In this document: piece by piece, positions 4,773 through 17,081 of the stretch
Position numbering within the stretch: the first letter of the stretch is position 1
How the letters are laid out: every line of letters starts with the position of its first letter
Source: an uncultured bacterium
Lineage (GTDB): Bacteria; Cyanobacteriota; Cyanobacteriia; Cyanobacteriales; Microcoleaceae
Assembly (NCBI GenBank): GCA_964609515.1
Contig: CAZSTZ010000002.1
Coordinates: 37,339 to 54,419, forward strand
DNA length: 17,081 nucleotides
Direction: 5' to 3'
Translations under genes and position numbers: made by a program
The notes under the pieces: model-generated
The model's database searches: none
What the model saw: the letters and a program-made list of their open reading frames with translations, nothing else
Told to the model about the DNA's origin: nothing

Positions 4773-5912
4773 ATGTCTAAAACAATTGCTATTCCCAAAG
4801 AAACCAGAATTGAAGAAACGCGAGTCGCCATTACACCAGATGGCGCTAAAAAATTAAGAGCATTGGGTTACAAGGTTAAAGTCCAAAAAAATGCAGGGAT
4901 AAAAGCTGGATTTTCTAACCCAGAATATCTGTTCAGTAACGCGGAAATTATCGAAGAAGTTCCATCTTTGTTGGCGGCAGCAAATATTGTGTTACCCTTG
5001 AAAAGACCGGCGGCAGAAATAGAAAAACAAACCATCGCTACTCTGGTTCCAGAAGCATTAATTGTAGGATTTTTAGATCCTTATTTTCAAAAGGGAAAAC
5101 ATCTACATTTTTATCAAAAACAAAAAGTAACTGCTTTTGCTTTTGAACTTTTACCAAACCTTCCCGAAACCCAGTTATTCGATCCTATGGCTCAGATGAG
5201 TCAAATTACGGGGGAGGTCGTTCTTGATGATTACATCGAGAACTATAACGAAAATCTGGAAGGCAAGAAGATTTTAATAATTGGCTTGGGAAATGTGGGT
5301 TTATCTTGTGCCAAGTATGCCTGGGAAAAAAAAGCTAAAGTTACAACAATTACTCGTAGCGATCGCTATCGAAATCTAGTCGCAAAACAAGGGGGGCGTT
5401 TCCTAAAAATTGAAGGAAATGCTGAATCGAAGAAACGAGAATTTGTGGAAAAGATACTGCTAACAAATTTTTTCGATCTAGTTGTTTGCAGTGCTAGGAT
5501 ACGCTGCCAGCTCGCACCCTTGTTAATTTCTAAATCGGCATTATTAAAATTACAAAAAAAAGTAATAATTTACGATTTAGCAGCAAGTTTGGGAGGAAAT
5601 TGCGAAGCCAGTCAGTACGGTAAAAATACTTCTTGCGGGGGAGCGGATGTGCGAAGCAAAACGGGATATCCTACCTCAAGACCGAAAGAGGCTTCCGAAC
5701 GCTATAGCAGTTGCGTAATAGAATTTTTGAAACATTTATCGCGAGATTCTGACGATTCGATAACGCAGTTGTGTTTGGAAAGCTGCGCGGTATGCAATGG
5801 CATGGTTAACCCAATTTTGGGGTTAAATGAAAATTACCAAATTAACGATGGAATTAAGTTTCGCGATCGCCTCCTTGAATGGCACTCAAACTACCTCAAA
5901 ACATGGCAATAA
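4773..5912 (+). CDS. Alanine dehydrogenase / pyridine nucleotide transhydrogenase (PntA dI-like) family protein, orphan
   Basis: 379 aa. N-terminus IAIPKETRIEETRVAITPDGAKKLRALGYKV, a GxGxxG Rossmann motif IIGLGNVG and DLAASLGGNCE (compare PntA DLAAQNGGNCE) place it in the AlaDH/PNT family. No pntAA/pntB follows. The C-terminal 90 aa are unusually Cys-rich. Confidence 0.65.
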   Translation: MSKTIAIPKETRIEETRVAITPDGAKKLRALGYKVKVQKNAGIKAGFSNPEYLFSNAEIIEEVPSLLAAANIVLPLKRPAAEIEKQTIATLVPEALIVGFLDPYFQKGKHLHFYQKQKVTAFAFELLPNLPETQLFDPMAQMSQITGEVVLDDYIENYNENLEGKKILIIGLGNVGLSCAKYAWEKKAKVTTITRSDRYRNLVAKQGGRFLKIEGNAESKKREFVEKILLTNFFDLVVCSARIRCQLAPLLISKSALLKLQKKVIIYDLAASLGGNCEASQYGKNTSCGGADVRSKTGYPTSRPKEASERYSSCVIEFLKHLSRDSDDSITQLCLESCAVCNGMVNPILGLNENYQINDGIKFRDRLLEWHSNYLKTWQ

Positions 5913-5920
5913 TTTAAAAC

Positions 5921-6868
5921 ATGACTAACAAACTCGCCAAAGCACCACAATCTTTTTTAGACAGCGCCACCTTAACAGCCCTTTTTGCTCTGATATCTGG
6001 CATCAGCATCATCGCTTTTATGCCAATCTTAACCCGATTTAGCGAAAGCGAAATTAGTCCGACAGCGACCATGTTTCATCGCGTCTGGATTGCTACTTTT
6101 TGTTTGGGATTATGGCAAGTAATCGAAAGGTTAAAACCTAAAAAATTTGGAGAAAAACTCGATGCAAAACCAATTTTTTCTGGCAAAATATGCCTATTAT
6201 TATTAGTAACAGGAATTTTTTTTGCCGTTCAACAAGTTATCTGGGCTTGGTCGATTACGGAAACTAGCATTGCCAATTCGGCACTCCTGCACAATTTAAC
6301 CCCATTTTTTACAACTTTAGGAGCCTGGATAATATTCGGTAAAAACTTCGATCGCCGATTTTATTTCGGTCTAGTTATTGCTATTACCGGAGCAAGTATT
6401 GTTGGTATCGACGATTTTTACTACGGATTTGACAAAATTCAAGGAGATATTTTAGCCTTTCTCTCTGCGTTTTTTTATGCAGGATACTTGCTGCTGGCAG
6501 AACAAGTGCGAAAGCAATTGCAAACCACAAAGGCACTGTTTTATTTCTGCGGAATTGCCAGCCTTTTTCTCTTGCCAATCTTACCTTGGAGGGAGGGAAA
6601 TATTTTCCCCACATCTGGGAATGGATGGTTAATTGCTGTAGGATTGGCTATGACTATTGTTGTCGGTCACGGACTGGCGATTTATAGTCTCAATCGACTT
6701 TCTTCGAGTCTAGTTTCTGTAACGATGTTACTCAATCCAGTGCTTAATGGTATTCTGGGTTGGCTCGTGTTTTCGGAAAGTCTCGATTTTTATAATTTAG
6801 TAGCTTTTCCGACAATTTTGCTCGGAATATATCTCGCCACTACCAGCAAATCTGCTATTAAGAAATAG
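5921..6868 (+). CDS. DMT superfamily (EamA-like) transporter, about 10 TM helices
   Basis: 315 aa and highly hydrophobic. Two EamA-like halves, each with a conserved G-rich helix (ITGASIVGID; TIVVGHGLAIYSL). Confidence 0.75.
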   Translation: MTNKLAKAPQSFLDSATLTALFALISGISIIAFMPILTRFSESEISPTATMFHRVWIATFCLGLWQVIERLKPKKFGEKLDAKPIFSGKICLLLLVTGIFFAVQQVIWAWSITETSIANSALLHNLTPFFTTLGAWIIFGKNFDRRFYFGLVIAITGASIVGIDDFYYGFDKIQGDILAFLSAFFYAGYLLLAEQVRKQLQTTKALFYFCGIASLFLLPILPWREGNIFPTSGNGWLIAVGLAMTIVVGHGLAIYSLNRLSSSLVSVTMLLNPVLNGILGWLVFSESLDFYNLVAFPTILLGIYLATTSKSAIKK

Positions 6869-7000: not shown

Positions 7001-7621
7001 ATGACTCAAGCAATAGAAAAACCCCAACTAATGACTCTAGACGAATTTCTGGACTGGTATCCAGACGACGGGAAAATTTACGAACTACATAAAGGAGTTA
7101 TTTTTGAAATGGAACCAACTGGAACTCACCAACAAGTTATTGGTTTTCTTGTAACTAAATTTGCCGTGCAACTTGAAAATCTCCAACTTGCATACTTGCT
7201 AGTAACTCAATGCATCATCAAATCAATTAGCACGGACAATTCTGGATTCAATCCCGACGTAACAATTCTCGATAAAAACGTTTTAGAAAACGAGCCGATG
7301 TGGAAAAAACGTTCCACAATTACCAACGGAGAAACTGTCAAGTTAGCCCTTGAAGTTGTCAGCACTAATTGGCAGCATGATTATTTAATGAAACTGTTTG
7401 AATATGAAAATCTAGGAATTTATGAATATTGGATAGTTGACTATTTAGGATTAGGTGGAAGGCGATTTATTGGCAGTCCCAAACAGCCGACTATTTTTGT
7501 TTATGTAATGGTGGATGGCGAATATGAAGTAAAAACGTTTCGAGGTAGCGACAGAATCGAATCATCAATTTTTCCCGAATTAAATTTAACGGCGGAACAA
7601 ATATTTGCAGCAGGTAGTTAA
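7001..7621 (+). CDS. Uma2-family (DUF820) restriction-endonuclease-fold protein, copy A
   Basis: 206 aa. Hallmarks of cyanobacterial Uma2/DUF820 proteins: N-terminal MTLDEFLDWYPDDG...YELHKGVI, and the PD-(D/E)xK-like core NPDVTILDK...LALEVVS. Nearly identical over its 5' about 140 bp and its 3' about 415 bp to copy B at 8798-9418. Confidence 0.85.
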   Translation: MTQAIEKPQLMTLDEFLDWYPDDGKIYELHKGVIFEMEPTGTHQQVIGFLVTKFAVQLENLQLAYLLVTQCIIKSISTDNSGFNPDVTILDKNVLENEPMWKKRSTITNGETVKLALEVVSTNWQHDYLMKLFEYENLGIYEYWIVDYLGLGGRRFIGSPKQPTIFVYVMVDGEYEVKTFRGSDRIESSIFPELNLTAEQIFAAGS

Positions 7622-7675
7622 AACGTAGCACCGCGCACCAGTATAATTATTGAAGGAAAAAAAGTAGAGAATAGA

Positions 7676-8122
7676 ATGAGTCAGTCGCAGTTATTACTGC
7701 CACCCTGGAGAAGTCCAAATTTAGGAATGGGTCGGATATTTAGCCATTTTACTAACTCTGAGGGAGCTACTGGAATTACAGGAATTATTGGGGATAGTCT
7801 CGATATAAATCAGCAGGCGATCGCCACTAAACTGCAATTCGGACAAGGTTCAAATCCCTTTTATGCTAACGCTTCAGGAGATATATTTGTAACAGAACTT
7901 GACGTGGAAGCAACTGTAGGTGATTTGAATTTAATTGGTGTCTTTGGCGACAAGCAAATGTTTCTAATTCAATTCTCAGAAGAAACTGCTTTAGTCTTAA
8001 ATAAGATTAGAGTCAGACCGGTGAAAATCTCTTATAATGTATTGACATCGGGCAGCAGTATTTACACTATCCCTGGTGGCACTACGCTCGTAGGTAAATT
8101 TCTCGTAACGAGGGTTAGATAA
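7676..8122 (+). CDS. Hypothetical protein (148 aa, Gly/Ser/Thr-rich, predicted beta-rich), first gene of a two-gene cassette
   Basis: ORF of 148 aa with no family I can recognise. Its stop overlaps the start of the next gene (TAATG at 8119-8124). Sits between the two Uma2 copies. Confidence 0.5.
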   Translation: MSQSQLLLPPWRSPNLGMGRIFSHFTNSEGATGITGIIGDSLDINQQAIATKLQFGQGSNPFYANASGDIFVTELDVEATVGDLNLIGVFGDKQMFLIQFSEETALVLNKIRVRPVKISYNVLTSGSSIYTIPGGTTLVGKFLVTRVR

Positions 8123-8739
8123 TGAATAAATTAGACCTTTATCAAACTGTCGAAAATTTAGAGTCTGGCGAACTAGAAAAACAAGTTTGTGCGCTAGAAG
8201 GCGCAGTAGAAATAGTTAACTTACTCGCCTTTAAAACTGTTGAAACATTCGAGAAAGCTTCCCACAAATTTCCCATCGCCGATCGCCTTTATCGCTTTGG
8301 TTCGATTATGGTACCCCACCTAGAACAATTGCTCGAAAAAACAGAAGATTTAGAAACCCAAATTCTAGCAGCAGTCGTACTGTTAAGATTGGGTTCCCAG
8401 GTAGGAGTTGATGTTTTATTAAATGCCATCTCCCGCGACAAACAATATCCCTGTTTGGCAGCAAGCTGTTTGGCAGCAGCGGGCATTAAAATAGCAATTA
8501 ATCCTATAAGCGATCGCCTCAGAAACGCCAGTTTTGAAGAGATAGATTTAATCGTCGGTTTGCTAACTGCTTTGGAAGAATTAAACGGCGAAATACCTCC
8601 CGATATCTATCGACTTTTTACAGTTGCCGATGCCCCGTGGCAAATTAAAGCTATAATTCAAGATAGGGAATTAAGCGGCGATCGAAAGTTAGTTTTAGAC
8701 AGCTTTACGTCTAACTATGTTAGGGAGATTAACTATTAA
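8122..8739 (+). CDS. Hypothetical alpha-helical protein with HEAT/ARM-like repeats (205 aa), second gene of the cassette
   Basis: Repeated helical hairpin pattern (AAVVLLRLGSQVGVDVLLNAISRD...CLAASCLAAAGIKIAINPISDRL) resembles HEAT-like repeats. Translationally coupled to the upstream ORF. Confidence 0.5.
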   Translation: MNKLDLYQTVENLESGELEKQVCALEGAVEIVNLLAFKTVETFEKASHKFPIADRLYRFGSIMVPHLEQLLEKTEDLETQILAAVVLLRLGSQVGVDVLLNAISRDKQYPCLAASCLAAAGIKIAINPISDRLRNASFEEIDLIVGLLTALEELNGEIPPDIYRLFTVADAPWQIKAIIQDRELSGDRKLVLDSFTSNYVREINY

Positions 8740-8797
8740 CTGTCCTAGTAGGGTGCGCACCGCGCACCAAAAAAATATTTAAAAAAAGGAAAAAACC

Positions 8798-9418
8798 ATG
8801 ACTCAAGCAATAGAAAAACCCCAACTAATGACCCTAGACGAATTTCTAGCCTGGTATCCAGAAGACGGGAAAATTTACGAACTACATAAAGGAGTTATTT
8901 TTGAAATGCAACCCACAGGCACTCACCAACAAATTGCTGGCGAACTTTCTGGGGAATTGTTCTTAGAAATTCGGCGCTTACATCTTCCTTACACTATTCC
9001 CAGTCAATGCATCGTTAAGTCAATTAATACAGACAATTCTGGATTCAATCCCGACGTAACAATTCTCGATAAAAACGCTTTAGAAAACGAGCCGATGTGG
9101 AAAAAACGTTCCACAATTACCAACGGAGAAACTGTCAAGTTAGCCCTTGAAGTTGTCAGCACTAATTGGCAGCATGATTATTTAATGAAACTGTTTGAAT
9201 ATGAAAATCTAGGAATTTATGAATATTGGATAGTTGACTATTTAGGATTAGGTGGAAGGCGATTTATTGGCAGTCCCAAACAGCCGACTATTTTTGTTTA
9301 TGTAATGGTGGATGGCGAATATGAAGTAAAAACGTTTCGAGGTAGCGACAGAATCGAATCATCAATTTTTCCCGAATTAAATTTAACGGCGGAACAAATA
9401 TTTGCAGCAGGTAGTTAA
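8798..9418 (+). CDS. Uma2-family (DUF820) restriction-endonuclease-fold protein, copy B (mosaic paralog of copy A)
   Basis: 206 aa. Identical to copy A at residues 1-40 (a few substitutions) and at residues 80-206. Residues 41-79 are divergent (IAGELSGELFLEIRRLHLPYTIPS versus VIGFLVTKFAVQLENLQLAYLLVT). Confidence 0.85.
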   Translation: MTQAIEKPQLMTLDEFLAWYPEDGKIYELHKGVIFEMQPTGTHQQIAGELSGELFLEIRRLHLPYTIPSQCIVKSINTDNSGFNPDVTILDKNALENEPMWKKRSTITNGETVKLALEVVSTNWQHDYLMKLFEYENLGIYEYWIVDYLGLGGRRFIGSPKQPTIFVYVMVDGEYEVKTFRGSDRIESSIFPELNLTAEQIFAAGS

Positions 9419-9698: not shown

Positions 9699-12413
9699 CT
9701 ACTCATCCTCCCCAGGATTAGGATTAATCAAACCTTTCGCAGTGCCAAACAAATTAATCGGACTCTTGCCATCAGTAATCAACACGCTTTCAATACCCAG
9801 CCCCTCCAACAGTCGCGCCTGCATTTCTGGGCCGGCTTGAGCGATCGCCCTGATAGTATCCGCCCCCAAAGCCTGAACCTTCTCCCGAAACTCCGCCGCA
9901 TTCATCCCCGCCAGACGCCTCGCCTTCTCCAACTCCAAACTATCGAAAGCCTGCTTGCGCTCAATCTCCGCCTCCTGACGCGCCCTGATAATAGCCGACT
10001 CCGCCTCAAAACGGATCCGCGCCGCCTCCGCTTCCTGCTGGGCTAACATAATCGTCGCCTCCCCGCGAATTCTCGCCGTTTCTGCCTTCGCCCTCGAATC
10101 CGCGTTCGCCCTTCCAGTAGCTTCAATAGCCGCATTTTCAGCCTGCAACTCCAGTAAACTTCTGCGTTCCGTTTCTGCCGCGCTTTCATCGACAATTCCC
10201 TGCCTTTCCAAACGCGCTTTTGCCTCCTGTTCGATCCGTTTGGCATCGTTTCTGGCAGCCGCTTCTTGAGCGTCGGTGGTAATCTTTATCGCCAACTGTA
10301 CCGATTTTTGCAAGCTCTTTAAAGTCTCCTCGTCAACCGGTTCCACCGACTGAATATCGACGTTAGTAATTACCAGATTGTTAGTTCGGAAGCGAAACTC
10401 CTCCCGCAGATTTCCCCCTTCATCCAACCCGAACACCGCCTCCCGAATAATCTGCGCCGACTGGCGGTGGAACTGCTCGAAACTGACACCGGCAACAGTC
10501 CCCCGAACTTGAGAAGCGATCGCCTTGCAAGCAGTATTGACAAAATCGGGAACCTGAAACAACTTCGCCGCTTCCTCTTGGCTGTTCTTGTCAACATCAA
10601 AATACCAATTATAAGACAACCGCAACTGCAACCGGGCGTGGTCTAAAGTTTCCACCGCAAACATATCCGTCATAAAATCCGGCCCCAACAGCAAAGCCAA
10701 AGACTTAATAACGTGAGGTCTTTTCGGCACCGAACCCGACAAACTCAACACCGTCACTTCCTCTTCCGGTCCTAACATTACCAAATCTGGACCGAAGACA
10801 ACGCGAGCAGTTCTCTCTTTGTAGTTATGAACCTGCACCGCCCCATTTTGGGGAACCTGGAAAACAACCGCCCTAGTTTTATCCCGCTGGTTTGCCGGGC
10901 CCCCGTAGGGATTGCCATGCCCCCCTCGGTAGCGCCCCCTGTCCGCCAAGGGGTCGATTTTTTTCATCAATATTTCTTCAACCGCCGGCGGAATTTCCTT
11001 TTCCCAAAGTTCCTGGTAAGGAGTTAATAAATATGCTTGCGGTCCGCGAATTAAACTTAGTTCTCCCGTCTGGATGTTGCGCACATAAATTCCCTCGTTT
11101 TGGTCTAAAGGAATCGCTTCGCGTTTTTCCACAACCTCCACTTCCAACGGAGGCACATAATCCCGAGGACCGTAAATCGTCCACAAATCCCCCGGTTGTC
11201 GTCGCACAGCGTTAGTACCCTCGCCCTCGGTAAACCGTTCCGTTGCCCGCAGCAACAGAGCTTCGCGCTCTCCCAGAACGTAAACATCTCGAATGCCTGT
11301 TTGGTAGTTATACTCGGGTTCTAAATCTAAACCTAGCTCTAGTTCTTGGAATACATCGTCAAAGGTTTCGCTATTTTCTTCGCTACCCTCGATATACTCT
11401 CCCGGATGCAAGAAAAAGGAAGTGCGACCTTGACGAATTTCTCGCCTGCCCAATTGGGGTTTGCCGTTGTCATCCACCGGGTTAACGATAACGCACCATT
11501 GGCGATCGCTTAAAGTAACTACTCCCACTTCGCCGATGACTTCTTCATAAACATCGGGTATGTGAGTTTCCGCATCTTCGTAAGTTACCAACCACTCGTC
11601 TCCCGCCTTGCGATACCGACCGAATATATCCGTAAAAGTTCGCCTCGCCTGTAAATGTAATGCTTTTTGTTCCGTTAAAACGTAAGCTTCTACTACTACT
11701 CCCACTTCTTCTTCCACGCCCGGCAAATAGGCCCCCACTTCTCTTACCAACCATTCCTCGCCAGCGATGCGAGGGTTGCCCTGGCGGTCTATACAGTCTC
11801 GCCGCGCCTGCAAGCATAACGCCTGGTTCGGTTTGATAATCGTCGCGTTTACTACTTGTACTACTTCAACTTCAATTCGAGGAATATAAGTTCCCGGACC
11901 CTCAAACAGCCATTCGTCTCCCGCCAAACGTTCCATAGGTTCGGCTTCCGTTGCCGTAGTTTCTGTAGCGAGGGGTGCCGTCGTCGTTCTAGTGGTTTCT
12001 GTAAAATCGCGAATCGCCCTCAAACGGAGAGCTTGATTTCTTTTTACAACCTGTAGCTCTTTAATATCTCCTAATAGTTCTTCCCCGGGATATAGTGGGA
12101 AAGGTTCTTGCTCGAAACGATATTCGCGATCGCCATAATGCAACCTCACCTGACCGTAAGCGTCCGCCAGCGGTTCTCCCCGACTGTCGCGCATCACTGG
12201 GTTAGCAATTAAACAATAATGCCTCGGCGGCACTATTATCATCTGTTGGGGTGCTAAAACTAGACGTTCGCCCTGACCTAAAGTTACCGTCCGCGGACCT
12301 ACTTCTAGTCTGGTGACTCCACTATTATTATCTAAAATGTGGATATACTGTTGGGGTTTGAGTCTAATTACTCCCCCAGTTTCTAATGATTCCTGAGTTT
12401 GACCTTTATTCAT
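9699..12413 (-). CDS. MVP: Major vault protein (MVP) homolog, full length (904 aa from the ATG at 12411-12413)
   Basis: Very strong similarity to eukaryotic MVP along its whole length. N-terminus IRLKPQQYIHILDNNSGVTRLEVGPRTV...MIIVPPRHYCLIANPV versus human [28 protein letters not shown]...MVTVPPRHYCTVANPV. Repeat domains GDEWLFEGPGTYIPRIEVEVV, GEEWLVREVGAYLP and GDEWLVTYEDAETHIPDVYEEV. Shoulder region RAVVFQVPQNGAVQVHNYKERTARVVFGPDLVMLGPEE...TVLSLSGSVPKRPH...LLLGPDF, and the cap-helix coiled coil. The track ORF starts at 12464, but the ATG at 12413 is preceded by GAGGAGGTG 7 nt upstream, a strong SD. The stop is at 9699-9701. Confidence 0.95.
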   Translation of the reverse strand: MNKGQTQESLETGGVIRLKPQQYIHILDNNSGVTRLEVGPRTVTLGQGERLVLAPQQMIIVPPRHYCLIANPVMRDSRGEPLADAYGQVRLHYGDREYRFEQEPFPLYPGEELLGDIKELQVVKRNQALRLRAIRDFTETTRTTTAPLATETTATEAEPMERLAGDEWLFEGPGTYIPRIEVEVVQVVNATIIKPNQALCLQARRDCIDRQGNPRIAGEEWLVREVGAYLPGVEEEVGVVVEAYVLTEQKALHLQARRTFTDIFGRYRKAGDEWLVTYEDAETHIPDVYEEVIGEVGVVTLSDRQWCVIVNPVDDNGKPQLGRREIRQGRTSFFLHPGEYIEGSEENSETFDDVFQELELGLDLEPEYNYQTGIRDVYVLGEREALLLRATERFTEGEGTNAVRRQPGDLWTIYGPRDYVPPLEVEVVEKREAIPLDQNEGIYVRNIQTGELSLIRGPQAYLLTPYQELWEKEIPPAVEEILMKKIDPLADRGRYRGGHGNPYGGPANQRDKTRAVVFQVPQNGAVQVHNYKERTARVVFGPDLVMLGPEEEVTVLSLSGSVPKRPHVIKSLALLLGPDFMTDMFAVETLDHARLQLRLSYNWYFDVDKNSQEEAAKLFQVPDFVNTACKAIASQVRGTVAGVSFEQFHRQSAQIIREAVFGLDEGGNLREEFRFRTNNLVITNVDIQSVEPVDEETLKSLQKSVQLAIKITTDAQEAAARNDAKRIEQEAKARLERQGIVDESAAETERRSLLELQAENAAIEATGRANADSRAKAETARIRGEATIMLAQQEAEAARIRFEAESAIIRARQEAEIERKQAFDSLELEKARRLAGMNAAEFREKVQALGADTIRAIAQAGPEMQARLLEGLGIESVLITDGKSPINLFGTAKGLINPNPGEDE

Positions 12414-12545
12414 ACCGCACCTCCTCAAATAATTAATAATTAACAATTGCTCTTTTCTCAGCAATAATTCATCTGCTACGTCTGTTGCAAAATTTGCTGT
12501 TAACTAAGCTTTTTATCGCGCTCCGCGATTACTACGAACAATTCA

Positions 12546-15083
12546 TTACTGCCTCCACAACTTAATAGTATTGTCTTTGCTGCCGCTGGCAATAGTCTTA
12601 CCATCGGGACTAAAAGCAACGGTATAAACCTCATCAGTATGTCCCTCTAAGGTACTAAATAACTCCCCAGTTTCTAAATCCCAAATTTTCACCGTATTGT
12701 CCTTGCTGCCGCTAGCAATAAACTTACCATCCGGGCTAATATCCACGTCAATAATATCATTAGAATGCCCTTCTAAAGTATTAATTAATTCTCCAGTTTC
12801 TAAATCCCAAATTTTAAGAGTATCGTCATAACTGCCGCTGACTAATTTAGTAGAGTCGGGACTAATAGCTAAAGTTCTAACGCCTTCAGTATGACCTGCC
12901 AAAGAATGAATTAAACCCCCCGTTTGTAAATTAACAACTTTAATAGTAGTATCCTCGCTGCCCGTGGCAAAAGTTTCACCGTCAGGAGCGATCGCCACCG
13001 CATAAATAATATTAAAATGATAGAAAAGATTGTAAATAAGAAAACCCGTATCCGTATCCCAAATTCTAACTACGGTATCCCCGCTACCGGTAATAGCTGT
13101 TCTGCCATCAGGACTAACAGCAACGGACCAAACGGGACCGTAATGGTCTAAAGAATACAAAAACTGTTCTGTTTCTAAATCCCAAATAAGTAGCCGCCAA
13201 TCGTAAGTAGCGGCAGCCAGTTTTTGCCCGTTATTAACATTAACATCAAAAGACCAAATAGGAGAACCATCGCCAAAAAAAGTTTTGCTAGATTCGCCGA
13301 TGGGCAATTCTAAAACTTCAAGAGAATTATTTTCACCGTTGCTAATAATTAATTCACCTTGAGGACTAAAAACAACATTTCTGACTATGCCATAATTGTC
13401 GCTTAAGTCTTCAACAGTGGCATTTTTCCAATTAAGAGCCTCTTGGCACTCTTGCAAGACGTTTTGACTTTCAGCAAATTTACTCGAAGATTCGGGGACT
13501 TCTGCCGCTTCTTCGATGCAGCGATCGTAATTTCTATTCTGATAAAAACCATCAATTGTAGCAAATTCTCTCGCCTCTCGTGCTAACAGTTCTTCTCGTT
13601 GTTTTTCTAACCTTACTCTTTCCTGTAAATTTTGCCATTGAATGTAAAGATAAAGAGCAGCTATTAAAGCTAAAATTCCCGTAATGCTAACTCCCAACAA
13701 CCACCATTCTAAAGAACGTTTTTTTCTACTTCTTCGCTGCCGGAGTGTTTGAGAATTATTAGAATTATTAGAATTATTAGAATTATTAATCGCTGCCGGT
13801 TGCGACTTTAACCTCATCGTCGCTGCTTCCCGCTCTCTGGCACTAGGTAAGTTATAAATAAACTGAGATTCCTGCAAATCTTGAAGAAACTTCTTCAACT
13901 TTATAGAGAAAGATTTAGGCGCCAATCGTTCTTCAATTAAAGCGCTATCTTCATCGGAAACTCCGAGAACTTGCTGCAAGCGAATTAACTCTTCCCGAGT
14001 TTCTTTAGTAAAAGGATATCCATTATTCATCTCCTTTAATAAAGCTTGTTCGTATCGTTCCCCCTTTTCTCGATATTTTCGGTAAGGATTTAAAATCTCA
14101 TCTTCGATCGCCTCCGTCTCTTCTATGTCTATTTCTAAACTATCTCGTAATGCGTCTAAAATTTCTCTACCCACCACAGAAATATCTCCCCGGTGACTCG
14201 AAAGACGCACTACTTCTTGTCGATAGGTCATTTTTTTATCTATCGCTAATTGGGGAGACTCTTTTAATTTTTTTAGCTCCGCTAAGACTTCGGCAGCAGA
14301 CTGGTAGCGATCGTGGTAATCGTAGCAAACCATCTTATCTAAAATCTCTGCAAACCCCGGAGAACATACCGCTAAATGACGCCAAACAATCTCTCGTTTG
14401 TGCCCTTTTTTATAATCTTTTAGTTTTGATAATTCCTCCGGCGGCAAACCCGTTAATGCCTGAATGCCAATCATCCCCAAAGCATAAATATCGCTGTTTA
14501 ACTGGGGATTGTATTCAAACTGTTCGATCGGCATATATTCAATAGTGCCAATTCTCACCGTTCGCGGACTTTGACCTTGACGACCGTTCAGTTCTTTAAC
14601 CGCACCAAAATCGATTAAAACTAACTTGTCATCCGTATCCCGTCTGATTAAATTGCTTGGCTTAATATCTCGATGAATTACCCCATTTCCGTGAACGAAA
14701 ACTAAAATTTCTAAAACCTCGTTGAAAATCTCAATTACTTGGTCTTCCGACAGCGGTTTACCTGCTATTATCTCCTTTTCTAATGGGGTTCCCGTCACAT
14801 AAGATTCAACTAAGAAAAATTCTTTATTTTCTTCAAAATAAGCGTAAAGTCTAGGGATTTGATTGTGTTGAGAAAGCTTTTCTAAAGTCTGGGCTTCTTG
14901 TTGAAATCGACGTCTAATAATCTCAATTAAACGCGGGTCGAAATTTCCCGGTTGTAAGTGTTTTACAAAACAGCGCGGTTCTCCAGGCCGACGAGTATCT
15001 TTAGCCAGATAAGTTCTGCCAAATTCGGCTGATTCTATGACTTCAAGGATTTGATAACGTCCGTCTAAAAGTCTGCTAACCAT
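12546..15083 (-). CDS. Receptor-like Ser/Thr protein kinase: N-terminal Hanks-type kinase domain, a single TM helix, a coiled coil, and a C-terminal WD40 beta-propeller (about 7 repeats)
   Basis: 845 aa. Kinase motifs GRTYLAKD...VKHL, HRDIKPSNLI and DFGAVK. A basic stretch RRSRKKRS precedes the TM segment LEWWLLGVSITGILALIAALYLYI. C-terminal repeats of ...GH...VxxVAxSPDGxxxASGSxDxTIKxWDLETG... (WD40). Same strand as MVP and immediately upstream of it. Confidence 0.9.
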   Translation of the reverse strand: MVSRLLDGRYQILEVIESAEFGRTYLAKDTRRPGEPRCFVKHLQPGNFDPRLIEIIRRRFQQEAQTLEKLSQHNQIPRLYAYFEENKEFFLVESYVTGTPLEKEIIAGKPLSEDQVIEIFNEVLEILVFVHGNGVIHRDIKPSNLIRRDTDDKLVLIDFGAVKELNGRQGQSPRTVRIGTIEYMPIEQFEYNPQLNSDIYALGMIGIQALTGLPPEELSKLKDYKKGHKREIVWRHLAVCSPGFAEILDKMVCYDYHDRYQSAAEVLAELKKLKESPQLAIDKKMTYRQEVVRLSSHRGDISVVGREILDALRDSLEIDIEETEAIEDEILNPYRKYREKGERYEQALLKEMNNGYPFTKETREELIRLQQVLGVSDEDSALIEERLAPKSFSIKLKKFLQDLQESQFIYNLPSAREREAATMRLKSQPAAINNSNNSNNSNNSQTLRQRRSRKKRSLEWWLLGVSITGILALIAALYLYIQWQNLQERVRLEKQREELLAREAREFATIDGFYQNRNYDRCIEEAAEVPESSSKFAESQNVLQECQEALNWKNATVEDLSDNYGIVRNVVFSPQGELIISNGENNSLEVLELPIGESSKTFFGDGSPIWSFDVNVNNGQKLAAATYDWRLLIWDLETEQFLYSLDHYGPVWSVAVSPDGRTAITGSGDTVVRIWDTDTGFLIYNLFYHFNIIYAVAIAPDGETFATGSEDTTIKVVNLQTGGLIHSLAGHTEGVRTLAISPDSTKLVSGSYDDTLKIWDLETGELINTLEGHSNDIIDVDISPDGKFIASGSKDNTVKIWDLETGELFSTLEGHTDEVYTVAFSPDGKTIASGSKDNTIKLWRQ
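13752..13787. repeat. 9-bp in-frame microsatellite (AGAATTATT)x4 inside the kinase gene. It encodes (NNS)4 just N-terminal to the TM segment.
   Basis: Four perfect tandem 9-mers read directly from the sequence. The protein shows NNSNNSNNSNNS. Confidence 0.85.
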
Positions 15084-15105: not shown

Positions 15106-15175
15106 AGTTGTTGGGAATTGCTAATTGCTAATTGCTAATTGCTAATTGTTAATTGCTAATTGTTAATTGTTAATT
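15106..15175. repeat. Heptamer tandem array (AATTGCT/AATTGTT) x10 (STRR-like), 23 bp upstream of the kinase start codon
   Basis: aattgct x4, aattgtt, aattgct, aattgtt x3, aattagc read directly. Same family as the repeats at 2287-2331. Confidence 0.85.
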
Positions 15176-15519
15176 GTTAATTAGCCATTACCTATCCAAC
15201 GGCTTTTCAGTAATCAAACGAGCCCCGCCCTCTCGGGTAAAATAACTCCACGCCCACTGAATCATCACTATCAATTTATTATCAAATTCGATGACGTAGT
15301 AGATGTGGACAAATACCCACGAAAAAAAAGAATGGAAGAATGGGAGCCGCGACGTTTTAACTCGCGGAGGGAATTATACTCAGGCGGTTTCAACCGCCGT
15401 GGTTTAAAAGGGTGGGAGGATTTTTCCTCCCTAATCTTCTACCGCCTTGGCCTTACTAACGACGGTGACATATTGCATTTGTCTTTCGTCCAGGCAATTA
15501 TGAACTCATGCTTTTAGGC

Positions 15520-15790
15520 TGTACGCATAAAAGTTAAACTCTCATTTCTGAGGTAATCTTCGCCTTGGCAAAGTTATCGGTCGGTACTTTCTTAGTTGCA
15601 CTGTTTTACCCCTCGTAGAACTGTTTAACAACTAAGTTTTAGCAGCCCAGAACTGGCGAGGCATTCTAAGGTAAGAGCTTCAACGCTTACCGATAACGTA
15701 GTCCTCTAGGGACTTAGCTCTTCTTCAGCATATCTAAATTAACGAGGCACGAAGCCCCGCTCTTCAGAGCGGGGTGCTGACGGCTTGGTT
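15520..15790. other. Highly structured non-coding segment of about 270 bp (multiple nested stems) that replaces the 3' end of the ndh gene. Candidate small RNA or decayed MITE/insertion remnant.
   Basis: No credible ORF on either strand. Stems: gttatcggt (15575-15583) with accgataac (15681-15689); cttagttg with caactaag; ggtaagagc with gcttacc; ccccgctc-ttca-gagcgggg (15755-15774). The ndh reading frame ends inside the last hairpin. Confidence 0.3.
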
Positions 15791-16892: not shown

Positions 16893-16923
16893 AAGAGTTT
16901 TTTTATGTTGTAGTTAATCTTTT

Positions 16924-17081
16924 TAGTTAATCTTTGTAGGTTGTGCGGACCTCCGTGGAAGCCAACAAAATATGTTTAGTTAATCTTTGTAGGTTGTGCG
17001 GACCTCCGTGGAAGCCAACAAAATATGTTTAGTTAATCTTTGTAGGTTGTGCGGACCTCCGTGGAACCCAACAAAATACGT
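16924..17081. repeat. 53-bp tandem repeat (TAGTTAATCTTTGTAGGTTGTGCGGACCTCCGTGGAAGCCAACAAAATATGTT), at least 3 copies, running off the window end. A 12-bp partial unit lies at 16909-16920. Located upstream of the ndh start.
   Basis: Copies begin at 16924, 16977 and 17030, with period exactly 53. Copies 1 and 2 are identical. Copy 3 has 2 substitutions. Confidence 0.85.

Follow-up and report, generated by a model that had tools for sequence, protein, structure and literature searches.

A full-length major vault protein orthologue on the chromosome of an uncultured filamentous cyanobacterium

The MVP gene and its product

The window analysed here is the whole stretch of 17,081 nucleotides from an uncultured bacterium assigned to the Microcoleaceae (contig CAZSTZ010000002.1, positions 37,339 to 54,419), and the element in question is a gene for a major vault protein (MVP). 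An earlier reading made from the letters alone, referred to below as the original prediction, had placed an open reading frame (ORF) at 9699-12413 without naming a strand. The ORF listing and its translation return exactly these coordinates on the minus strand, with one long ORF that runs from an ATG at 12413-12411 to the stop codon at 9699-9701. An alternative TTG start would lengthen the ORF to 921 aa (9699-12464), which is the version called by JGI; the ATG is the preferred candidate start, a choice that the N-termini of homologues support. The gene, its Shine-Dalgarno-like motif and the modules of its product are arranged as follows:

9699..12413, minus strand: MVP coding sequence, 904 aa plus stop, about 101 kDa, pI about 4.95 (from the ORF, Pfam, PDB and the ratio of nonsynonymous to synonymous substitution rates, dN/dS)
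12420..12426, minus strand: Shine-Dalgarno-like GAGGAGG, 6 nt 5' of the MVP ATG (read from the sequence)
10683..12374, minus strand: R1-R9 beta-repeats, aa 14-577, aligned to rat residues 6-519 at 47-65% identity per repeat, with eight Pfam repeat matches
11943..11993, minus strand: Thr/Ala/Glu-rich insertion in the R3 loop, aa 141-157, opposite a 17-residue gap in rat (HMMER alignment)
11304..11387, minus strand: acidic 28-aa insertion at the R6/R7 junction, aa 343-370, at the break between two HMMER domains
10335..10682, minus strand: shoulder (SPFH-like), aa 578-693, PF11978 at 172 bits over profile positions 1-118 of 118, 62% identity to rat
9867..10334, minus strand: cap-helix, aa 694-849, 156 residues against rat 647-802 without a gap, 47% identity
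9702..9866, minus strand: cap-ring and C-terminal tail, aa 850-904, of which 850-897 align to rat 803-850 at 65% identity

In Pfam, the 904-aa product scores above the gathering thresholds of the Vault (four stretches, 223.6 bits), Vault_2 (two stretches), Vault_3, Vault_4 and MVP_shoulder models (PF01505/PF17794/PF17795/PF17796/PF11978); nothing beyond these vault families appears in the Pfam scan at E<=0.01, and no NCBIfam or PADLOC model matches the product. MVP chains of the PDB, including rat 7pkz and 4v60, human chains and the 893-aa chain 11dr, are matched at E = 4e-279 to 7e-277, and query residues 14-897 align to residues 6-850 of rat MVP (reference structure PDB 4V60). The proposal that the gene encodes a whole MVP and not a domain fragment is therefore borne out, as all vault models are passed and significant matches extend across the repeats and the shoulder rather than one repeat domain alone. 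Identity to rat MVP, counted from the HMMER alignment, is 55% over 835 aligned positions; this is strong for a pair formed by a bacterium and an animal, although the wording 'very high' had overstated it. Three of the sequence blocks that were initially quoted, GDEWLFEGPGTYIPR (aa 165), VPPRHYC (aa 61) and LLLGPDF (aa 574), are present, whereas the fourth, RPKRPH, is the rat version and reads VPKRPH in the window protein.

By alignment, all twelve structural modules of rat and human MVP recur in the protein in collinear order. The boundaries of these modules are approximate and are those of the rat protein, which we take to be as described by Tanaka and colleagues in 2009. The R1-R9 repeats make up the barrel wall in eukaryotic vaults, and here every repeat matches the rat length exactly except R3, the R6/R7 junction and R8, which has four residues more than in rat; the shoulder loop is 11 residues shorter. 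Conservation among close relatives was assessed in an alignment of 17 MVPs, comprising the window protein and 16 database homologues that are all cyanobacterial except for one mislabelled metagenome-assembled genome (MAG). In this alignment 320 positions are invariant, the cap-ring and the N-terminal R1 strands rank among the most conserved segments (almost invariant), and the cap-ring motif GPEMQ...LITDG..PINLF does not vary at all. In the low-confidence AlphaFold2 model the cap-helix region forms a near-continuous helix over aa 695-835. The R3 loop is variable in length throughout the cyanobacterial homologues, with the longest version in the window protein. The R6/R7 insertion is confined to the clade of the window, to Okeania, where it is longer, and to P0009, where it is short; it is missing in 12 of the 17 aligned MVPs. 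In the Okeania proteins P0007 and P0014 this insertion spans about 60 aa, and the R6 motif in front of it is nearly repeated within it (KEVRQGKTSFFVE after REVRQGRTSFFLHPGE), suggestive of an internal duplication of part of the sequence.

The maximum Kyte-Doolittle value over 19 residues is 1.18, so that the product lacks a transmembrane segment and is, as predicted from its sequence, a soluble and acidic protein. This bears directly on a different identity, that of a TolA-like 'colicin uptake protein' or a membrane-anchored member of the SPFH family. Homologues carry the product names 'colicin uptake protein' or 'colicin transporter' at NCBI in many cases and 'major vault protein' at JGI, and the Glu/Ala/Arg-rich cap-helix resembles TolA domain II at the level of low complexity (Daly et al., 2013; Sokolskyi, 2019). 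No TolA family of Pfam is matched at E<=0.01, however, nor is any NCBIfam model, and the MVP alignment covers the whole length of the protein rather than the coiled coil alone. As no hydrophobic segment is available to serve as an anchor, the TolA or membrane-anchored reading is ruled out and retains very little probability.

The surroundings of the coding sequence are less informative. A promoter scan returned 15 promoter-like sites against 9.8 +/- 3.5 expected, the terminator scan found none after the MVP stop codon, and a G/C-rich hairpin downstream of MVP is uninformative (z = -1.6). Directly past the stop codon, the segment 9560-9698 is rich in G/C homopolymers, with a CCCCCC/GGGGGG hairpin and two copies of TTGGTTTGTAGCGGAT.

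Chromosomal setting and selection

HIP1 sites (GCGATCGC) occur 18 times in the window against 0.21 expected, and four of these lie inside the MVP gene. The flanks consist of ordinary bacterial genes, namely PanE, a thioesterase, a peptidoglycan-binding protein, TerB, a DUF815 ATPase and Tmemb_14, together with AlaDH/PNT, EamA, two Uma2 nucleases, a Ser/Thr kinase-WD40 gene and a flavoprotein oxidoreductase; Uma2 and kinase-WD40 are among those typical of cyanobacteria. An independent metagenome contig from ENA (L001) is 100% identical over 7.9 kb, a MAG contig (L004) shows 92% nucleotide identity, and a Cyanobacteriota MAG (L005) shows 82-87% across the whole block. Other homologues are located on multi-megabase cyanobacterial contigs, e.g. 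those of Calothrix NIES-2100 and Oscillatoria PCC 10802.

Eukaryotic contamination or a chimeric assembly would account for a similarity to animal MVP that is very high for a bacterial protein, and for a gene GC content of 51%, which exceeds that of the flanks by about 10 points. Such an origin is difficult to combine with the HIP1 sites within the gene, an uninterrupted ORF preceded by a Shine-Dalgarno motif, and the presence of the same junctions in the independent 100%-identical contig and in relatives with the same gene order (nucleotide identity of 92% and 82%). Orthologues exist in 70 bacterial genomes, in some of them on contigs of 7-10 Mb; the bacterial copies form a clade of their own with 100% support, and no eukaryotic sequence is more than 55% identical. 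The probability of contamination is therefore negligible, the assignment of the gene to a cyanobacterium in the original prediction stands on its HIP1 sites, bacterial flanks, synteny and identical independent contig, and it is virtually certain that the window gene is a true MVP orthologue in a bacterial genome.

The age of the gene at its locus can be read from gene order. The order kinase-WD40 / MVP / Tmemb_14 / DUF815 / TerB is common to the Cyanobacteriota MAG and two Okeania genomes, and the thioesterase and PanE are each matched in one or both of the latter. The first gene of this series is located upstream of MVP:

12546..15083, minus strand: Ser/Thr kinase-WD40 gene (context), with Pkinase and WD40 domains, on the same strand as MVP and separated from it by a 132-nt spacer

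The Okeania MVPs are only about 67% identical to the window MVP despite the kept gene order, which indicates that MVP has occupied the same chromosomal position since before the window and Okeania lineages split. Taken as a whole, the explanation favoured here, which includes the assembly considered below, is that of an intact, chromosomal orthologue of eukaryotic MVP in an uncultured, filamentous relative of the Okeania lineage of cyanobacteria, and it is held with good confidence.

Comparison with two close relatives gives dN/dS values of 0.127 (L004, 93% identical) and 0.118 (L005, 82% identical). The MVP gene is under purifying selection and, judging from these substitutions and the coding sequence, very probably expressed and functional. 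Together with the unbroken 904-codon ORF and the GAGGAGG placed 6 nt upstream, this selection agrees with the initial description of an intact gene provided with a Shine-Dalgarno sequence. Across 59 loci the G+C content at third codon positions (GC3) of MVP follows that of its host, with a mean difference of -0.02, which argues for long residence and not for recent import. In the window, MVP GC3 is 0.51 against 0.30-0.43 in most neighbouring genes and climbs along the gene, being 0.40 at its 5' end and 0.61 in the final complete block of 100 codons. This excess recurs in L004, L005, L062 and the Okeania locus L065 but is absent from most other genomes, in which MVP GC3 stays close to that of the flanks. 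Recent acquisition was considered as the cause of the high GC and rejected, because it conflicts with the conserved synteny and with the HIP1 sites within the gene.

For the same reasons, a recently acquired and functionless passenger gene that is heading for decay is highly improbable. The elevated GC3 with its 5'-to-3' gradient could be taken as a trace of such an arrival, and some orthologues elsewhere appear disrupted, one being split (L060) and another truncated (L064). A dN/dS of about 0.12 and an intact ORF of 904 codons do not fit a decaying gene, and HIP1 sites in the gene as well as the Okeania synteny imply long residence. Among the irregular orthologues, the MVP gene of Hormoscilla (L060) is split into two overlapping ORFs, that of Moorena bouillonii (L064) has a truncated ORF yet a tblastn match about 300 nt longer than usual, and the MVP ORF of L054 begins late; these disruptions could be frameshifts, insertions or assembly errors.

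Distribution and phylogeny of bacterial MVPs

A word-indexed protein search returned 2359 matches at E<=1e-10. The best 120 of these 2359 are all 65-100% identical to the window protein, and the named organisms among these 120 are all cyanobacterial, except for one 'Actinomycetota' MAG (P0065, the protein of locus L071). A scan of one genome per GTDB species located 70 loci with an MVP gene. Most of them belong to filamentous cyanobacteria, including Moorena, Okeania, Symploca, Laspinema, Microseira, Oscillatoria, Calothrix, Nostoc, Aulosira and Tumidithrix. In addition, four loci are from giant sulfur bacteria of the Thiotrichales (Thiomargarita and Ca. Parabeggiatoa; L040, L049, L053 and L067) and five from filamentous Chloroflexota (Anaerolineales, Chloroflexaceae and Oscillochloris; L046, L047, L050, L059 and L070), with MVPs that are 56-64% identical to the window MVP in the best tblastn segment. 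HIP1 density is 0-0.04 sites/kb in these nine loci against a cyanobacterial median of 0.72, which confirms that they are not mis-binned cyanobacterial contigs. The 'Actinomycetota' locus L071, with 0.62 HIP1 sites/kb and an MVP that groups with those of Calothrix and Nostoc, almost certainly lies on a cyanobacterial contig that was assigned to an actinomycete MAG by mis-binning. No paper on MVP in Thiomargarita, Beggiatoa/Parabeggiatoa or Anaerolineae was found in the searchable literature. Bacterial MVPs had been described as rare and confined to a few lineages; they are rare in relative terms, but with 70 species genomes they constitute a sizeable family. As for mobile carriers, tblastn gave no match in 72,556 plasmids (PLSDB) or 50,697 phage records (INPHARED), and no MVP match was obtained in the viral contigs of IMG/VR. 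Many of the genera that carry the eukaryote-like bacterial MVP are known gliders.

An exhaustive HMMER search of 1.84 billion representatives at 50% identity yielded 3513 matches at E<=1e-3, the best of which is just 53% identical. From full-length sequences, a neighbour-joining tree was calculated (64 sequences, 823 columns, 100 bootstraps; L059 and L070 left out). It unites 21 of 21 bacterial eukaryote-like MVPs in a single clade, whose bootstrap support is 100% and whose internal branches are short. The tree is less useful for polarity: the most divergent sequences, which had been tried as an outgroup, proved to be those of Intoshia linei, a fast-evolving animal, so that the tree is effectively unrooted and gives no direction for the original transfer. 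The bacterial clade is placed among long-branched sequences; ten of these have a name or accession, and each of the ten is either eukaryotic or a metagenomic sequence without assignment. Names are available for Anaeramoeba, the sponge Corticium, the diplonemid Lacrimia, Trypanosoma, the ciliate Platyophrya and the orthonectid Intoshia; Anaeramoeba appears as sister of the bacterial clade with just 23% support. MVPs of Thiotrichales and Chloroflexota, represented in the tree by seven of their nine loci, cluster together beside the cyanobacterial copies.

Pairwise identities complement this picture. Identity is 64-95% within the bacterial clade and 27-55% between bacteria and the eukaryotic representatives, and each named eukaryotic MVP is nearer to the bacterial clade than to the named eukaryotes of other supergroups. 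The sponge MVP, for instance, is 50% identical to bacteria and 40% to other eukaryotes. Judged by these distances, the bacterial clade resembles a lineage that evolves slowly and is placed close to the centre of the eukaryotic radiation, and among the eukaryotes sampled none is an obvious donor in recent times. Within bacteria, horizontal spread is implied by the small divergence between copies from three phyla.

Partners, predicted assembly and known systems

All-against-all clustering of the ORFs within 10 kb of MVP at 69 loci revealed no neighbour family in more than eight loci, and among the 121 proteins encoded by the two genes nearest upstream of MVP, Pfam revealed no domain in more than six. 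TROVE, DUF4062, PARP and vWA are not among the 25 most frequent upstream families listed, below which single occurrences are possible, and Rfam reports no vault RNA (RF00006) at E<=1 within the window. In these scans, MVP is not associated with TEP1 and PARP4/vPARP at its loci or with vault RNA in the window in the manner of a complete vault ribonucleoprotein; it is a solo gene at its loci. With no gene for TEP1, PARP4 or vault RNA alongside, any particle would be built of MVP only or filled with cargo encoded elsewhere.

The kinase-WD40 gene adjoins MVP only in the window, L004, L005 and the two Okeania loci, and this adjacency is inherited synteny, as the neighbours share the wider gene order as well; the gene is not considered part of the MVP system. 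Its 845-aa product scores 94.1 bits with its propeller against the TEP1 beta-propeller model of Pfam (cut-off 89) and 310 bits with its kinase domain against the PADLOC model PD-T4-6, both of which are probably generic family matches. A role as a TEP1-like partner was rejected because WD40 repeats cross-match generically and the Okeania synteny explains the adjacency. A defence-island role was likewise set aside: PADLOC gives no match for MVP, and the matches of its neighbours to PD-T4-6 (kinase) and PDC-S03 (Uma2) are generic.

How might a solo MVP act? In the proposed mechanism, the protein would self-assemble like eukaryotic MVP without the need for any other component. By analogy with the eukaryotic particle, a hollow assembly of 78 subunits with D39 symmetry, the cap-helices would bundle into half-shells of 39 subunits, the repeat domains would lie side by side as a barrel wall, and docking of two halves at the N-terminal waist would enclose a hollow cytoplasmic cage, which might consist of MVP only or be loaded with cargo of other origin. 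As a best guess at its cellular role, the cage could serve to sequester or store material, which would be of use to filamentous cells of very large size. In insect cells and yeast, MVP is enough on its own to build vaults. Human MVP alone also forms nanoparticles resembling vaults in Escherichia coli (PMC9778704), and hence nothing in a bacterial cytoplasm forbids assembly. The kept repeat lengths, the gapless cap-helix and the near-invariant R1 strands and cap-ring suggest that the geometry of the particle is under selection, from which we infer that vault-like assembly is the most probable outcome. By this analogy, it appears moderately probable that the bacterial MVP forms closed vault-like particles in vivo.

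Several observations weigh against this interpretation. No experiment on a vault particle in any bacterium was found in the searchable literature, and the AlphaFold2 monomer, calculated from the 17-sequence alignment, is poor (predicted local distance difference test, pLDDT, 51.7; predicted template modelling score, pTM, 0.27). D39 has been implicated in the docking of half-vaults (PMC12280208); its equivalent is Q47 in the window lineage and Asp in most cyanobacteria. Position 6 of the waist is Gly in the window protein and not Ala or Phe. The 17-aa and 28-aa insertions sit in loops that may face either way, no conserved neighbour across the 69 loci offers a functional clue, and the GC3 of the window MVP is well above that of its flanks. 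Some of these points can also be read as signs of a true MVP homologue that builds no closed 78-mer and instead forms open half-shells, rings, another oligomer or a soluble scaffold with a non-encapsulating role. The altered waist residues, the lineage-specific insertions in R3 and at the R6/R7 junction, and the silence of the literature on bacterial vault particles would all agree with this, and the related SPFH family is a fold type able to build different cage geometries (PMC12624060). Rat lengths in all but R3, R6/R7 and R8 and a gapless cap-helix of 156 residues are, however, hard to explain without a constraint on geometry; the cap-ring and R1 strands are among the most conserved segments, and MVP alone suffices for assembly, even in E. 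coli. A protein that stops short of a closed vault is thus unlikely, yet it carries more weight than any of the other alternatives, and the closed vault-like particle remains the preferred reading.

Within that particle, a partly conserved basic pocket of the shoulder may bind adenine nucleotides (NAD+ or ADP-ribose). The human pocket for NAD+/ADP-ribose comprises R504, K506, R507, P508, H509, R511, P565 and K573 (PMC12280208). Six of these eight residues are kept (K506, R507, P508, H509, P565 and K573, corresponding to K564, R565, P566, H567, P622 and K630 in the window protein). Against binding speak the loss of two of the three basic residues of the keyhole loop (R504V and R511I) and the variation of the motif in cyanobacteria, where PKRPH, PKRPN, PKKAN and PKQMH are found. 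Binding of adenine nucleotides by the predicted pocket is therefore possible but rather doubtful.

The window also contains the following elements:

15553-15781, minus strand: HEARO RNA (RF02033, IscB-associated omega-RNA), 119.9 bits against a gathering score of 83, E = 9e-25
7001-9418, plus strand: two Uma2-family nuclease genes (206 aa each) and the ORFs that they bracket (Pfam)
12562-12839, strand not given: tandem repeat of 126 nt in 2.2 copies, which reflects the WD40 repeats
16922-17078, strand not given: tandem repeat with a 53-bp unit in 3.0 copies at 99% identity, at the window end
15116-15182, strand not given: heptamer AATTGCT in 9.6 copies, just upstream of the kinase gene start

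The HEARO RNA is full-length and lies between the oxidoreductase and kinase-WD40 genes; as no ORF of at least 80 aa follows, it is an orphan copy without an IscB/HNH gene. The two Uma2 proteins are 88% identical and score about 300 bits against the PADLOC candidate system PDC-S03; their genes have in common an identical stretch of 293 nt that extends from the 3' end of each into the sequence just downstream. The ORFs between them (7676-8122 and 8122-8739) match nothing in Pfam, NCBIfam or PADLOC. Together with AlaDH/EamA (4773-6868), the Uma2 cassette fills the interval between MVP and Tmemb_14. This interval has no nucleotide match in Okeania, and L005 matches a single Uma2 copy only.

The window gene is not the first of its kind. 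Three cyanobacterial MVPs were described in 2013 in a study that modelled their folding and docking, noted the misannotation as 'colicin uptake' and proposed a eukaryotic donor (Daly et al., 2013, PMC3762200). A later analysis of bacterial MVPs noted a link to gliding bacteria and proposed the opposite direction of transfer (Sokolskyi, 2019, bioRxiv 10.1101/872010), and MVP-like proteins of phages have been reported in a 2023 preprint (bioRxiv 10.1101/2023.11.10.566534). The novelty implied by the original prediction is thus lost, also because JGI labels a member of the query's own 90% cluster 'major vault protein'; the accompanying statement that bacterial MVPs lack functional characterization agrees with the searchable literature, in which no functional study was found. 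A recent vault paper still calls vaults absent from prokaryotes (PMC9778704), and bacterial MVP in cyanobacteria is under-appreciated rather than new.

To our knowledge, the function of vaults is unsolved some 40 years after the discovery of the particle. A bacterial MVP without TEP1, PARP4 and vault RNA might offer the simplest setting for studies of the role of the shell itself, and culturable, perhaps genetically manipulable cyanobacteria suit this question. Hosts that are better placed than the window lineage exist among Moorena, Okeania, Planktothricoides, Calothrix NIES-2100 and Nostoc sp. T09. How a signature structure of eukaryotes arose is a further question to which the family is relevant; none of these points is specific to the window gene. 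A tentative proposal, a little less probable than its contrary, is that bacteria contain real MVP-only vault cages and that their clade is near-ancestral and spread horizontally among large filamentous Cyanobacteria, Beggiatoaceae and Chloroflexota. If this were true, a minimal and partner-free system would be at hand for working out the purpose of vaults, and their origin would be reopened, with transfer from bacteria to eukaryotes or the reverse.

Among known systems, encapsulins and the shells of bacterial microcompartments are self-assembling cytoplasmic cages too, although this is a functional analogy only, as the folds are unrelated; their genes adjoin cargo genes, whereas MVP has no conserved neighbour. 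The cages of SPFH proteins (HflK/C, stomatin, flotillin and prohibitin) come closer, since the MVP shoulder is SPFH-like and both are large domed oligomers (PMC12624060). SPFH cages are membrane-anchored and have no nine-repeat barrel, in contrast to the window protein with its full-length MVP alignment and no hydrophobic anchor. Divergent MVP-like proteins with a predicted MVP fold occur in Myxococcota, Bacteroidota and Herpetosiphon, mostly in gliding bacteria (Saprospira H6L4P8, Microscilla A1ZGE7 and Plesiocystis A6FXM1). As described in the literature, their identity to the MVPs of cyanobacteria and eukaryotes is only about 16-25%, and a recognizable band-7 domain is present in some; the window protein is of the eukaryote-like type and unlike this group.

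Rat and human MVP (4V60, 7PKZ, 4HL8 and 6BP7) share with the window protein the collinear series of R1-R9, shoulder, cap-helix and cap-ring as well as an identical cap-helix length. They differ from it by the two loop insertions and the shorter shoulder loop of the window protein, in which R504, R511 and D39 are not kept. In addition, the eukaryotic vault has TEP1, PARP4 and vault RNA as partners, whereas none was detected near the window locus, whose particle is a predicted one. The closest counterparts are the published cyanobacterial MVPs F4Y3B4 (Moorena producens/Lyngbya majuscula), K9TKX8 (Oscillatoria acuminata) and K9WB38 (Microcoleus (Allocoleopsis) PCC 7113), which are 67-72% identical and share with the window protein its clade, length class, full domain set and the misnomer 'colicin uptake protein'. 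The sub-lineage formed by the window, L004 and L005 departs from them in having the longest R3 loop, the 28-aa acidic R6/R7 insertion, Q at the equivalent of D39 and an unusually high GC3 relative to the flanks. On this comparison the window gene appears as a further orthologue of the already described clade of eukaryote-like bacterial MVPs, and its sole distinguishing features are the lineage-specific loop insertions and the compositional anomaly.

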